NCBI GenBank assembly: GCA_049515895.1
Contig: JBEKTQ010000004.1
Coordinates: 32,001-96,000, forward strand
Direction: 5' to 3'
From: Candidatus Bathyarchaeia archaeon
GTDB taxonomy: Archaea > Thermoproteota > Bathyarchaeia > Bathyarchaeales > Bathycorpusculaceae
Length of the DNA stretch: 64,000 nt
Made by a program: the position numbers and the translations under genes. The notes under the pieces were generated by a model, which saw only the letters and a program-made list of their open reading frames with translations, had not been told where the DNA came from and did not search any database. Positions 44,661-61,904 of this stretch are shown here, in pieces (position 1 is the stretch's first letter; each line of letters begins with the position of its first letter).

Positions 44661-46850
44661 ATGACTTCCAAAATTGCTGTAGATAAGCCGGGCGATTTTG
44701 CCTTGCTTAACGGCGATGAAGCAGTTGCTAGAGGCGCTGTTGAAGCCTCCGTCAAAGTAGCCGCTTCTTACCCCGGAACACCCGCTACCGAAATTTTGGA
44801 AACCCTAGCTGAAGTATCAAAAGAATTTGACATCTACGCAGAATGGAGCATAAACGAGATTGTTGCCACCGAGGTAGCTGCCGGCGCTTCGATGGCAGGT
44901 GTTCGCTCTATTGTTTCAATGAAACATGTTGGCCTAAACGTTGCCTCGGATGCGGCCATGACATTGGCATACACTGGAGTTGAGGGTGGACTGTTAATCG
45001 CTGTCTGTGATGACCCAGCTTTGCATAGCAGCCAAAACGAGCAGGACACAAGATATTTTGCGGTTCATTCGAAGTTGCCTTTGCTGGATGCGGGAAATCC
45101 GCAGGAAGCCTTGGATATGGCTAGAGAAGCGTTTGAATTAAGCGAAAGGCTGCATTTGCCAGTTATCTTGCGTTTGACGACAAGGGTTGCTCATGGGAAG
45201 GCTCGAGTGAGACTTGGTCGGTTGCATAAGTTGAGTCGAAAAGCTGATTTTGATAAACAAGGTTCAAAATGGGTAATGGTTCCGGCTAACGCAATTCGGC
45301 AGCACAGAGTCTTAGAAGTAAAGATGGCAGAAACAAAAACACTTGTTAATCATTCAAAGTTTAATGTGATTGAAGATAATGCGAGCGACATAGGAATTAT
45401 AGGAAGTGGAGTAGGTTACTATTATGCCCGTTCAGTGCTCGACACGAAAAAGTTTTCTTGGTTAAAGCTAGGTTTCGTTCATCCTTTTCCTCAGGAGATT
45501 GTTGAAAGATTTGCGCTCAAAGTAAAAAAACTCATAATAATTGAGGAGCTAAGGCCGTACATTGAAGAAAATATCCAGCGGTTAGGTCTGCAAGCCCTTG
45601 GAAAAAATCAGTTAGGCTTGGAGGAAATTGGCGAGTTAACGCCCGATAATGTACGCCAAGCCTTCGCAAGTTTAGGGTTAACAGCTAAAGCAGAGCCGCA
45701 GGAATCATTGAACTTGCAGCCAAGACCACCCAATCTTTGCCCAGGCTGTCCTCACAGAGCTTTTTATTATGCCCTAAACATGGTAAATCAGCATGTTAAC
45801 TGTGACAACGACAAATGCGTCGGCTGTGACATTTGCGAGTACGTTTGCTCTTTTGAGAAGGAGGGAGTTTTTAACCCGCTTAAGTCGCGTATCCGCTCGG
45901 TGAGGCTTGGTCAAGTTTTCAACACCGCGATAACATGCAAAGCCTGCATTGACGCCCCATGCATTACCGCTTGCCCGGAAAAAGCTCTGGCGCGGTCAAA
46001 TAAAAGCGGAGCTATCATGGTCGACCAAGAAAAATGCAAGGGCTGCCCATGGTGCATCGAAGCATGTGAGTTCGGCGCAGTTACGGTCAACTCGCGCACA
46101 CGTAAAGCCATAATATGCGACACATGCAGCGGGGAACCCAAATGCATTCCTTTTTGCCCCGAGGGAGCTTTGAGCTTATCTGGAAAATCAAACGACAAAA
46201 TCGTTACAGGCGACATCGGCTGCTACACGCTTGGTGTTTTGCCGCCTGTCAACACGGTTCAAACGTGCTTGTGTATGGGGGCTGGGATTTCCCAGGCTGC
46301 AGGAATGTTTCATGCTGGTGTAAAGGATAAGGTGTTCTCGGTTATCGGTGACTCGACGTTTTTCCACGCGGGTATGCCTGGGTTGATGAATATAGTGTAT
46401 AACAGGGCTAACGTATGCGTGGTCATCATGGATAATAGCACGGTTGCGATGACGGGGCATCAGCCTACGCCTGGCTCGGGAAAAACAGCGATGGGAGCGG
46501 ACGCTAAAATCCTGAAGCTGGTAGACGTTGCTAAGGGGCTTGGAATAGACAAAGTGGCGGTTGTTGACCCGTATGATATTGAAGGCACAATTTCATCTCT
46601 AAGGAAAATTATTGATTACGATGGTCCATCTGTCATCATTTCACAGAGACCCTGCCCCCTTTTGATTGAAAGAGGCAAGCCTAGGGAAACCACGGATAAG
46701 TGTAATGACTGCGAGGTTTGCACGAAAGCTTTCGGCTGCCCCGCCATCTACAAAGTAAACGGACAAGTTGAGATAGATTCATCGCTCTGCTACGGATGCG
46801 GCGTCTGCGAAGTCGTCTGCCCCTTTGAAGCGATTAGGAGGAAAGAATGA
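44661..46850 (+). CDS. iorA: Indolepyruvate:ferredoxin oxidoreductase alpha subunit with inserted polyferredoxin
   Basis: YPGTPATE, MKHVGLNVA, SQNEQD, CPGCPHR, GDIGCY, IGDSTFFH, DNSTVAMTGHQP, C-terminal 2x[4Fe-4S]. Confidence 0.93.
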   Translation: MTSKIAVDKPGDFALLNGDEAVARGAVEASVKVAASYPGTPATEILETLAEVSKEFDIYAEWSINEIVATEVAAGASMAGVRSIVSMKHVGLNVASDAAMTLAYTGVEGGLLIAVCDDPALHSSQNEQDTRYFAVHSKLPLLDAGNPQEALDMAREAFELSERLHLPVILRLTTRVAHGKARVRLGRLHKLSRKADFDKQGSKWVMVPANAIRQHRVLEVKMAETKTLVNHSKFNVIEDNASDIGIIGSGVGYYYARSVLDTKKFSWLKLGFVHPFPQEIVERFALKVKKLIIIEELRPYIEENIQRLGLQALGKNQLGLEEIGELTPDNVRQAFASLGLTAKAEPQESLNLQPRPPNLCPGCPHRAFYYALNMVNQHVNCDNDKCVGCDICEYVCSFEKEGVFNPLKSRIRSVRLGQVFNTAITCKACIDAPCITACPEKALARSNKSGAIMVDQEKCKGCPWCIEACEFGAVTVNSRTRKAIICDTCSGEPKCIPFCPEGALSLSGKSNDKIVTGDIGCYTLGVLPPVNTVQTCLCMGAGISQAAGMFHAGVKDKVFSVIGDSTFFHAGMPGLMNIVYNRANVCVVIMDNSTVAMTGHQPTPGSGKTAMGADAKILKLVDVAKGLGIDKVAVVDPYDIEGTISSLRKIIDYDGPSVIISQRPCPLLIERGKPRETTDKCNDCEVCTKAFGCPAIYKVNGQVEIDSSLCYGCGVCEVVCPFEAIRRKE

Positions 46851-60107: not shown

Positions 60108-61103
60108 TTATTTCTCGGAAACTATCAAGTTGTAAGGGTCAATGGGAACTTCGGGGAAAGGCATTTCCTCTTTGTGCTTAACCATAACTCGCTCTTTTTC
60201 AGTGAATTCTCCTATAAAATAAGCCGTAAGCCCATTTTGCCTCAATGTTTCCATTACTTTTTTCGTCGCTTGAAAGTCCACCGCTACTAAAACAGTCCCT
60301 GTTGAAGACATAGATAGAACCTGCTCATCGCTAAGTCTGAAGTGGTTCTGTAAGGAAAGTACTTCGCGTGAAAACGCGAGTTTTTCCCAGTCCACTCTAA
60401 AACCAACTCCTGACGCTTCAGCAAGCTCGTTTAAAGCGGCTACAACCCCGCCTTCAGTGGCATCATGCATCGCATGGACCCCGCCGGTTTTAGCCAGCTG
60501 CAGCGCTTCGGAAACGCAGCTTTGCATGCGAACCATCCCTGAAAATTTTTCCTGCACTTCTGCTCCGAACAGGTCCCTCGCCAGCTCCTTTTGGATCAGA
60601 GCAAAGTTGATTACCGTTTCTAAACCGAGCGGCTTGGTGCACAAAATGAGGTCGCCTGGCTTAGCATTTGCCGGCGTAATCAGTTTCTCCAAGTTCACTG
60701 TCCCATAAACTGTAGCGACGCCGACCAAGCCTTGAAGGCTATCATACATACCGGTGTGTCCTCGAACAATCGCGATGTCAAGTTCAACTGCTGCTTGGCA
60801 GGTTTGCTTCATAATTTTTTGAAAAACTTCTGGTTTTGTTGAGCGTGGCCCAAGCAGGTTGATTGTACAAAATTGGGGTTTGGCACCTGACAGGGCAACG
60901 TCTGAGGCGGCGTAGTTGATCAGCAAGTAACCAAACCATTCTTCAGGAACGCCTGTGCACGGGTCAGACGCAACAACCATATATTTGCCGTCTACTTCGT
61001 GAACGCCTGAATCGTAGCCAATCATGGGTGGAATGACTACTCTGGAATCCTCCTTGATGCAGCTTAGAATTTTTTGTAGTTCTTGGTCTGGCAGTTTACC
61101 CAT
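60108..61103 (-). CDS. AIR synthase-related (PurM/ThiL/HypE fold) protein
   Basis: MGKLP, GYDSG, ASDP, SDVALSGAKP, GHT, AKPGDLI, AMHDATEGG. Confidence 0.85.
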   Translation of the reverse strand: MGKLPDQELQKILSCIKEDSRVVIPPMIGYDSGVHEVDGKYMVVASDPCTGVPEEWFGYLLINYAASDVALSGAKPQFCTINLLGPRSTKPEVFQKIMKQTCQAAVELDIAIVRGHTGMYDSLQGLVGVATVYGTVNLEKLITPANAKPGDLILCTKPLGLETVINFALIQKELARDLFGAEVQEKFSGMVRMQSCVSEALQLAKTGGVHAMHDATEGGVVAALNELAEASGVGFRVDWEKLAFSREVLSLQNHFRLSDEQVLSMSSTGTVLVAVDFQATKKVMETLRQNGLTAYFIGEFTEKERVMVKHKEEMPFPEVPIDPYNLIVSEK

Positions 61104-61113
61104 GTTTTATCCA

Positions 61114-61713
61114 TCATAAGCGGTAGTCAAGGGTTCCTCTTTTTATCAGAATTGTCATCACTACGGCGCTAATAATGTATTCTACTATGAGGAAGCTGCC
61201 ATTATAGATGGCTGGAAAAATCCATCTTCCGTATGCGGGAAACGCATAAACGTAATACCAAACGAATACGCCTGCGAAATAGTGAACGAGGAATCTTAGG
61301 AAAACAGCGATGCCAGCGCCGACAAGGGCAAGACGAACGGTTTTGTTGTGAAATAAGCTGGTTAACATGCCTGTTAGCCCAATTAACCCAAAAGCTACAG
61401 GGTACTCGAACACTGCTTGGACGGGAGTGGCAACTACCGCTGAAGCTCCAAGAGAAAGCACATCGATTAACAAAGCAATTGCGCCAAATATTGCTCCTGT
61501 TATCAATCCCACACGGATACCTCGCCTAATAGACAGCCACATTGTTGGAACCATGCTACCCAGAGTCACGGCGCCACCATAAGGCAATGAAAATGGTCTA
61601 AGAGCATACAACACGGCTGATAGAGCCGAAAAAACAGCAATTTCCGCAAGAATTTTTGTTTGGAATATAGTATTAGATTTTTCAGTTATGTTATCTGATT
61701 TAGGTTGGTTCAA
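61114..61713 (-). CDS. thiT: Thiamine ECF transporter S-component ThiT
   Basis: LAEIAVFSAL, PYGGAVT, RRG..G, HYFAGVFVW, YNGSF; TPP riboswitch upstream; true start probably TTG 61713. Confidence 0.85.
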   Translation of the reverse strand: MNQPKSDNITEKSNTIFQTKILAEIAVFSALSAVLYALRPFSLPYGGAVTLGSMVPTMWLSIRRGIRVGLITGAIFGAIALLIDVLSLGASAVVATPVQAVFEYPVAFGLIGLTGMLTSLFHNKTVRLALVGAGIAVFLRFLVHYFAGVFVWYYVYAFPAYGRWIFPAIYNGSFLIVEYIISAVVMTILIKRGTLDYRL

Positions 61714-61716
61714 TTT

Positions 61717-61810
61717 TTTTCCCTCCGCCAGCATTACCTGGTTCAGGTTCTAAGGGTCGACAGCGACTAGCCGTCCTCTCAGCCGGGTCTACTCCCAGCT
61801 CCCCGAGAAC
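61717..61810 (-). ncRNA. TPP (THI-box) riboswitch
   Basis: Minus strand GUUCUCGGGGAGCUGGG..CCCGGCUGAGAG..GACCCUUAGAACCUGAACCAGGUAAUGCUGGCGGAGGGAA; conserved UGAGA and ACCUGA..UAAUG..GGAGGGA; stems P1-P5 can pair. Confidence 0.93.
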
Positions 61811-61904
61811 ATCTTAATGGGATAATGTTTTTAGGATATATTTTAGTTTTCCTACCCGGAAACTTTAACCCGTTAGAAGCAAAGTGGAATCTGAGGCTTG
61901 AAGC

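Follow-up and report, generated by a model that had tools for sequence, protein, structure and literature searches.

How would an archaeon couple its supply of thiamine pyrophosphate (TPP) to the synthesis of a vitamin transporter, when the RNA that senses TPP seems to occupy almost the entire leader of the message? This question is raised by a locus in a Candidatus Bathyarchaeia archaeon (NCBI GenBank assembly GCA_049515895.1, contig JBEKTQ010000004.1, positions 32,001 to 96,000 of the forward strand); the 64,000-nucleotide stretch so defined is called the window here. On its minus strand a TPP riboswitch directly precedes thiT, the gene for a thiamine-specific S-component of an energy-coupling factor (ECF) transporter. 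We consider it probable that the element is a functional TPP riboswitch acting as a translational OFF switch, with the Shine-Dalgarno (SD) sequence built into the sensor and without a separate expression platform, a reading that comes from sequence and its comparison across relatives.

That the sensor is a TPP aptamer is clear. When the whole window was scanned with Rfam cmscan, the sole match was RF00059, the TPP family (minus strand, 61703-61815). It scores 63.1 bits where the gathering score is 54.3 (E 5e-10), and the alignment runs over model positions 1-105 of 105, the full length of the model. It is also the single RF00059 match in the 3.18-Mb genome. An earlier note on this DNA, made from the letters alone, had called a complete TPP aptamer here, and the score and the full coverage of the model bear it out. 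The elements that it named (P2, P3, UGAGA, P3a, P4, P5, the GUAAUG loop and, outside the sensor arms, GGAGG, a G followed by seven A, the TTG start and a TATA-like site) agree letter by letter with the sequence. Its P1 has to be withdrawn: the proposed UUCUC/GGGAA helix reuses two G residues (61723-61722) already assigned to its own P4. In the Rfam register, P1 is GUUCU (61810-61806) opposite AAAAA (61719-61715), with three of five standard pairs and two mismatches. The parts of the aptamer are as follows.

61703..61815, minus strand: TPP riboswitch aptamer (RF00059; Rfam)
61806..61810, minus strand: P1 5' strand, GUUCU (Rfam alignment); also complementary to AGAAC 61751-61747 (J2/4, P4)
61753..61804, minus strand: pyrimidine-sensor arm, P2-P3-P3a
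61804-61801 with 61756-61753, minus strand: P2, GGGG with CCCU
61799-61794 with 61787-61782, minus strand: P3, GCUGGG with CCCGGC
61781-61777, minus strand: J3/2, UGAGA
61775-61770 with 61764-61759, minus strand: P3a, GACGGC with GCUGUC
61722..61747, minus strand: pyrophosphate-sensor arm, P4-P5
61747-61745 with 61724-61722, minus strand: P4, CCU with AGG
61741-61738 with 61731-61728, minus strand: P5, CCAG with CUGG, loop GUAAUG

The conserved unpaired core of the class, whose bases contact TPP, consists of CUGAGA, GAACCUGA and GCG-N-AGGGA; it is present in the window and is invariant or nearly so in an alignment of 67 aptamers, 57 of them from the same order and the remaining 10 from elsewhere in the class (the best-scoring loci, with nine added to complete the set of relatives). 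On this alignment the Rfam structure pairs 87.6% of cells, against 81.6% in shuffles and 35.8-55.5% in slid controls. Compensatory change on both sides was seen in 15 of 29 pairs, and none of 500 shuffles reached any of the five measures used. Pairing is highest in P3 (99.3% of cells) and P3a (97.8%), where most of the compensatory changes fall, followed by P2 (91.4%) and P4/P5 (88.8%); in P4/P5 six of the eight pairs are invariant, and the sole unpaired position is a G.G at columns 84/103. From the E-value, these compensatory changes and the recurrence of the element in the same genus (22 of 24 genomes, with one copy each), the match exceeds chance.

Is the locus archaeal at all? One alternative would make this stretch bacterial DNA mis-binned into an archaeal genome, or else a decayed and functionless relic. 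The source genome (53 contigs, estimated 100% complete) does carry a contamination estimate of 4.87%, and among our control genomes ThiT matches were found in bacterial ones only. Furthermore, one relative (L025) is a 4-kb contig labelled Acidobacteriota, from an Acidiferrales bin; it holds a riboswitch of the Bathyarchaeia type and a ThiT at 69% identity that groups within the Bathyarchaeia ThiT clade, so that it is probably this contig that was mis-binned. Against bacterial origin, the window is part of a 147-kb contig, and an archaeal BRE/TATA-like promoter (BRE, transcription factor B recognition element) precedes the aptamer with no bacterial terminator. The relatives of its ThiT at 63-90% identity come from records titled Candidatus Bathyarchaeia or Bathyarchaeota, and five of the six records with such relatives have RF00059 directly upstream of thiT (the sixth ends at that point). 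The order riboswitch-thiT-AIRS, with a RimK-like gene opposite, is repeated in L022 and L024, the latter titled a complete Bathyarchaeia chromosome. A relic is excluded by the covariation. Of 151 class genomes, 93 carry the element, and many of these are of high quality. We therefore regard this alternative as already largely refuted and give it next to no weight. The relatives, the recurring gene order and the 16S rRNA end described below together show that the locus is native archaeal DNA and its host a peat-type Bathyarchaeia archaeon, which settles the earlier note's concern that the region might prove bacterial.

The element is far from confined to this genome. All of the following counts are from samples in which kin are not independent. 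RF00059 was found in 29 of 41 genomes drawn as relatives, with one copy per genome in 22 of the 24 of the same genus; in 93 of 151 genomes sampled from the order (40 of 63 genera), 90 of them over the cut-off; and in 93 of 151 genomes sampled from the class (48 of 79 genera), with at most four copies per genome. In a sample of the phylum it was found in 30 of 151 genomes, 20 of which belong to other classes (families f42, f44, f49 and f56; by the tallies per family, 131 genomes of this sample come from other classes).

The gene that follows the aptamer is indeed thiT, as the earlier note had it (61114..61713, minus strand; 199 aa; Pfam PF09515). Its product scores 114.5 bits against PF09515 (Thia_YuaJ; cut-off 25.8), has full-length homology to the Lactococcus lactis ThiT structure 3rlb (E 5.3e-14) and reaches 107.6 against the NCBIfam equivalog TIGR02357, just under the cut-off of 108.45; as a predicted S-component, it would bind thiamine. 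ThiT is also what the riboswitch usually precedes. Among 56 first open reading frames (ORFs) after the aptamer, 44 encode ThiT, six RibU-like S-components, two NCS1 permeases, two ThiW and one ThiC. The six loci at which a RibU-like protein (PF07155) replaces ThiT were taken, from identities of at most 21%, to be L004, L020, L030, L033, L035 and L057, and in L024 (1516-2175) two riboswitch units stand in tandem, one before a RibU-like gene and a methyltransferase gene and the next before thiT-AIRS.

ThiT itself was found in 73 of the 151 class genomes, in 71 over the cut-off, and 64 of the 74 places at which it occurs in this sample directly follow an RF00059 match. The pair of riboswitch and thiT is old and common in the class. 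The earlier suggestion that the riboswitch was acquired together with thiT finds no support as a recent event, given the prevalence of the element, its usual place before ThiT and the deep clades into which ThiT falls. The window ThiT is divergent (114 bits, against 140-175 for most Bathyarchaeia ThiT), and at the same locus within the genus other ThiT proteins are only 27-39% identical to it, while the AIRS neighbour is 50-75% identical (loci L004-L035). In a tree of 49 ThiT proteins, which included no named bacterial outgroup, the window type and L021-L026 form a clade with 100/100 support that adjoins the ThiT of another family (f6) and stands apart from the remaining ThiT of the same genus. 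Within the genus, then, the riboswitch and the AIRS gene stay similar and ThiT splits into several deep clades, a pattern that suggests either that ThiT was replaced, within the Bathyarchaeia, at a locus that stayed fixed, or that old paralogs were sorted differently.

If the aptamer is real and native, how would it control thiT? The answer depends on where the message begins and where the ribosome binds. The relevant features are these.

61838..61852, minus strand: archaeal-type promoter candidate, a BRE-like purine-rich GGAAAAC (61852-61846) and a TATA-like TAAAAUAU (61845-61838)
61722..61726, minus strand: SD sequence GGAGG, of which AGG (the final three bases) forms the P4 3' strand and GG (the initial two) falls in the conserved GCG/N segment beside P5
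61714..61721, minus strand: 8-nt spacer GAAAAAAA (G and seven A), which includes the GA of the junction as well as AAAAA (61719-61715), the P1 3' strand in the Rfam register
61711..61713, minus strand: TTG start of thiT; ATG, GTG or TTG at the homologous place in relatives

The TATA-like element that had been noticed upstream is present, 27 nt before the P1 5' strand. A run of at least six A/T-only bases ends 22-45 nt (median 31) before P2 in all 54 order relatives with enough upstream sequence, and it is commonly preceded by a GAAAAC-like purine-rich stretch. Applying the usual archaeal distance between TATA element and start, we infer that transcripts begin 5-10 nt before P2, and therefore that the leader would be hardly longer than the aptamer, with the P1 5' strand probably at the extreme 5' end of the mRNA. 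In many relatives P2 is also preceded, at a distance of 6-15 nt, by a pyrimidine-rich stretch with complementarity to GAGGGAA; an example in the window is AUCCCA at 61823-61818. Because, by the TATA distances, these possible anti-SD sequences are located at about the predicted start or before it, we did not count them as RNA.

At the other end of the leader, the SD sequence lies inside the aptamer, as previously noted: GGAGG is made of the P4 3' strand and the adjoining junction and stands 8 nt before the TTG, the usual spacing of this genome. The source genome uses SD initiation. Its 16S rRNA ends ...GGATCACCTCCT, with CCUCCU at the 3' end; of 2521 ORFs of at least 150 aa, 121 have GGAGG in the 20 nt that precede their first start, against 0.85% of random 20-mers; and the spacers between GGAGG and start peak genome-wide at 6-10 nt. 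An in-frame ATG (61734-61732) was considered as the start and rejected: its position is within the P5 loop, where the relatives have ATA as their consensus.

The arrangement is widely kept. GGAGGGA is present in 52 of the 57 order aptamers, and we surveyed the position of the start, taken as that of the first ORF of at least 80 aa after the aptamer, in 85 aptamers (the 67 aligned, six from named records assumed to be members of the order and twelve from other classes). The start falls 9-14 nt after the A of AGGGA, which is a spacer of 6-11 nt after GGAGG, in 61 of the 85. Among these 61 the base before AGGGA, which completes the SD motif, is G in 56, A in five and T in none, whereas in the 24 aptamers with a far start or no ORF it is G in nine, A in four and T in 11. 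The same contrast is seen in other classes of the phylum, where G precedes AGGGA in five of six aptamers with an adjacent start (all before ThiW) and in one of six whose start is distant (four of these precede a gene for a solute-binding protein, and for two no family was assigned).

Taken together, these features suggest a mechanism in which the riboswitch would account for essentially all of the 5' untranslated region of the thiT-AIRS operon. The BRE/TATA promoter would start the transcript a few bases before P1, and the ribosome-binding site would lie inside the sensor, with GGAGG formed from the P4 3' strand together with the two bases that come just before it in the pyrophosphate-sensing arm. 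When TPP is plentiful, the ligand would bridge the two sensor arms and lock P4/P5 and the weak, A-U-rich P1; the 30S subunit would be kept off GGAGG and ThiT would not be made. When TPP is scarce, the aptamer would no longer be the most stable fold, and the leader GUUCU could pair with AGAAC of J2/4-P4, so that P4 opens and the SD sequence is freed. The identity of the aptamer, its conservation and covariation, where the SD sequence and the start codon lie, the reliance of the genome on SD initiation and its gene content are shown by the data; that TPP binds, where transcription starts, that the switch turns OFF and that leader and J2/4 form an alternative helix are what we infer.

Modelled folding is consistent with such a switch. 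The free-energy fold of the window leader contains neither P1 nor P4; in it GUUCU pairs with AGAAC (J2/4 and the first P4 base) and not with the A run. Constraining the fold to the aptamer costs 3.9 kcal/mol relative to the free fold for the window leader and a mean of 2.9 kcal/mol over 57 relatives; without ligand, P4 has a probability of 0.07 in the window and an average probability of 0.38. Weakly, these energies fit a two-state switch in which TPP would pay for the closure of P4 over the SD sequence.

A simpler version of this scheme dispenses with the alternative helix. In that version TPP merely occludes the SD sequence, the apo aptamer breathes enough to let the ribosome in, and the complementarity of the leader to J2/4 is a by-product of a U-rich leader facing an invariant GAACC. 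The invariance of GAACC leaves the helix without any possible support from covariation, and the A-rich partner of P1 so resembles GAAC that one leader would fit both. There is precedent as well, since in SAM-II, SAM-III (the SMK box) and preQ1-II riboswitches the SD sequence is part of the ligand-binding fold and no second structure is involved; they are alike in mechanism to the element described here, in that ligand buries the ribosome-binding site without a platform, and unrelated to it in fold and ligand. Several observations speak for a specific alternative structure. Pairing with the J2/4-P4 stretch is stronger for the actual leaders (mean -4.8 kcal/mol) than for shuffled ones (-2.6 kcal/mol), and 15 of 57 fall in the best 5%; two different leader motifs (GUUC and GGUU) reach J2/4-P4 in two registers; and the helix between leader and J2/4 dominates the model ensemble of the window. 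Simple occlusion is a possible but rather unlikely account of the locus.

A second alternative accepts the aptamer and moves its effect away from initiation, so that TPP would alter elongation or termination of the transcript, or its decay from the 5' end. The predicted start, which places the P1 5' strand at the extreme 5' end, would suit such a device, and no expression platform is visible, which leaves the read-out open. The riboswitches before thiT (yuaJ) in Firmicutes, the THI-box elements, act by transcription termination; like the window, they place a TPP aptamer before a ThiT S-component that shares an ecfAA'T module encoded elsewhere in the genome, and differ from it in that control there is by termination and here, as we read it, by the position of the SD sequence. 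However, the aptamer in the window is followed by a run of seven A, not by a T run. Termination at T-runs early in the coding region, found in some relatives, was considered and rejected: these runs are not conserved, are not kept in the window and arise from Phe and Ile codons. Finally, a purely transcriptional device would have no need of GGAGG and a start codon conserved at SD spacing. We judge an effect on elongation, termination or decay to be improbable, and return to the preferred reading, translational control through an SD sequence within the sensor.

Several results count against that reading or limit its force. First, P1 is poor. Besides the three pairs of five in the window, only 56.4% of P1 cells are paired among the relatives in the Rfam register, and shifting the register by one base, next to that of the earlier note, brought no gain (51.2%); so weak a P1 might mean poor binding of TPP. 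No signal was found for complementarity between leader and tail (mean -2.9 kcal/mol, and -2.9 kcal/mol in shuffled leaders), in a shuffle test that is blind to selection for U-rich against A-rich strands. Second, the modelled apo ensemble keeps the SD sequence of the window mostly paired (unpaired probability 0.28), and therefore the model alone does not show an accessible ON state. Third, since GAACC is invariant, the leader:GAAC helix cannot covary, and the 15 of 57 leaders that beat 95% of shuffles include many close kin. Finally, phylogeny confounds the association of G with an adjacent start, and the analysis used the loci that scored best.

Compared with known systems, the class of the element is ordinary. 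The TPP riboswitch of E. coli thiM is a translational OFF switch. The element in the window resembles it and RF00059 in general in having a full aptamer with CUGAGA, ACCUGA and GCG-N-AGGGA, in its position in the 5' leader of a thiamine gene and in the presumed repression of translation by TPP. It differs in having no anti-SD/anti-anti-SD platform, the SD sequence being the P4 3' strand itself, in a P1 with three A-U pairs, in its archaeal promoter and in a leader that is probably no longer than the aptamer. ThiR is a ThiN-domain transcription factor governing archaeal regulons of thiamine transport and synthesis; there the regulator is a protein and here it would be an RNA, and no ThiN-domain match was found in the source genome, which leaves it without a ThiR-type regulator.

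Riboswitches are usually described as rare in archaea. In the survey by McCown et al. (2017, PMC5473149), archaeal riboswitches are few, with the TPP and fluoride classes the commonest, and the counts given are 79 in Euryarchaeota, six in Crenarchaeota, one in Korarchaeota and one in Thaumarchaeota; the TPP class is described as universally distributed (Hoeppner et al., 2012, PMC3486863). The archaeal TPP riboswitches known from Thermoplasmata and scattered other lineages are of the same class and domain as the one described here and likewise stand upstream of genes for thiamine transport or synthesis, whereas in the Bathyarchaeia, at 93 of 151 sampled genomes, the element is far from rare. 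The earlier suggestion that the lineage may be unreported therefore stands in part: our literature search found no paper describing a TPP riboswitch in Bathyarchaeia, but the element is common there and the window is no exception. In full text, excluding supplements, no paper was found that treats a TPP riboswitch and Bathyarchaeia together; papers containing riboswitch and Bathyarchaeota were unrelated by title, and in one of them riboswitch appeared only within the reference list. Wider searches, for thiamine transport and thiamine auxotrophy among Bathyarchaeia and for crenarchaeal TPP riboswitches, turned up nothing specific. The riboswitch class is ordinary and its host little described, and automated Rfam annotation would flag the element; its prevalence in the class and its platform-less design seem to be unwritten in the literature. 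One riboswitch class was found in some six in ten of the genomes sampled from an archaeal class that is large, uncultured and globally abundant, almost always before vitamin transporters, and it offers a concrete case, open to testing, of translation controlled by RNA in archaea with SD initiation.

What would such a switch govern in this host? Searches of the genome, for which named control genomes gave matches to each family, found no match to ThiC, thiamine pyrophosphokinase (TPK) or the ThiN domain, none over the cut-off for ThiE and, for Thi4, only short matches to its nucleotide-binding N-terminus. A canonical ThiL is present elsewhere in the genome (261 bits), and so are the ecfA and ecfT genes that the earlier note proposed to look for, as one ecfA-ecfA'-ecfT operon (L074; ABC_tran, ABC_tran and CbiQ/EcfT in a row). 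With ThiL and ecfAA'T found and ThiC, Thi4, ThiE, ThiN and TPK not, the host is probably a thiamine auxotroph whose single riboswitch governs the uptake protein. In the window itself, a predicted TPP-dependent enzyme, the alpha subunit of indolepyruvate ferredoxin oxidoreductase, is encoded at 44661-46850 on the plus strand (693.8 bits). The riboswitch marks these Bathyarchaeia as thiamine scavengers, with a bearing on vitamin cross-feeding in peat and sediment communities.

Downstream of thiT lies a second gene that may belong to the same pathway.

60108..61103, minus strand: AIRS/AIRS_C (PurM-superfamily) gene, 331 aa, beginning 10 nt after the thiT stop

This gene is probably co-transcribed with thiT. 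Assignments to SelD, HypE and ThiL were tried and rejected, the scores being 92.1 against a cut-off of 125, 86.4 against 251.6 and 85.3 against 184.15, respectively. HypE, SelD, ThiL and PurM are its nearest solved relatives, and public names for the protein go only as far as "AIR synthase-related" or "hydrogenase maturation factor"; on sequence it can be placed only as a member of the PurM superfamily. Of the 67 aptamers, 36 have a homolog of the AIRS gene (at least 50% identity) in the 1.5 kb that follow them downstream. Orthologs (at least 47% identity) occur in 30 of the 151 class genomes; in 29 of these the ortholog shares the strand of ThiT and lies no more than about 0.8 kb downstream of it. 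A distinct group of AIRS paralogs (30-36% identity) has no linkage to ThiT. TPK exceeded its cut-off in one of the 151 class genomes, regardless of the presence of the AIRS gene, and with so few occurrences its value as a complement to that gene is uninformative. A role in thiamine salvage, for example in thiamine phosphorylation, is a reasonable hypothesis for the AIRS protein, and the conserved operon partner would be a candidate for an unknown salvage step. In several lineages a gene for a single-domain KaiC-like ATPase stands between thiT and the AIRS gene (L002, 2140-2850; L040, 2165-2887).

From this, two linked readings can be put forward tentatively, and we regard the pair as doubtful. 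The first is that the Bathyarchaeia and some other Thermoproteota would use a reduced TPP riboswitch, platform-less and nearly P1-less, in which the pyrophosphate-sensor helix also serves as the SD sequence and the ON state arises when the first bases of the mRNA pair with J2/4. The second is that the PurM-superfamily gene travelling with thiT would encode the missing thiamine-salvage kinase of a class possessing ThiT and ThiL and almost no TPK; the enzyme would convert thiamine to thiamine monophosphate or, in one step, to TPP.

The remaining observations concern the surroundings of the operon and variants of the leader. Upstream of the riboswitch and thiT lies a divergent aspartate dehydrogenase gene, and downstream of thiT-AIRS a convergent gene for a RimK/MptN-like ligase. 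In L047 and L059 an NCS1 permease gene with its own GGAGG lies about 80 nt downstream, and the GGAGG of the aptamer is followed by a short ORF (two codons in L047 and 15 in L059), which may be a remnant or a coupling device. Finally, in three leaders of family f42, from another class (L083, L085 and L092), a strong P1 is followed by CUCCUUCUUCUACCGCC and then by GGAGGUG and the ATG of a gene for a solute-binding protein, an arrangement that reads as an SD-sequestering platform of the bacterial style in archaea.

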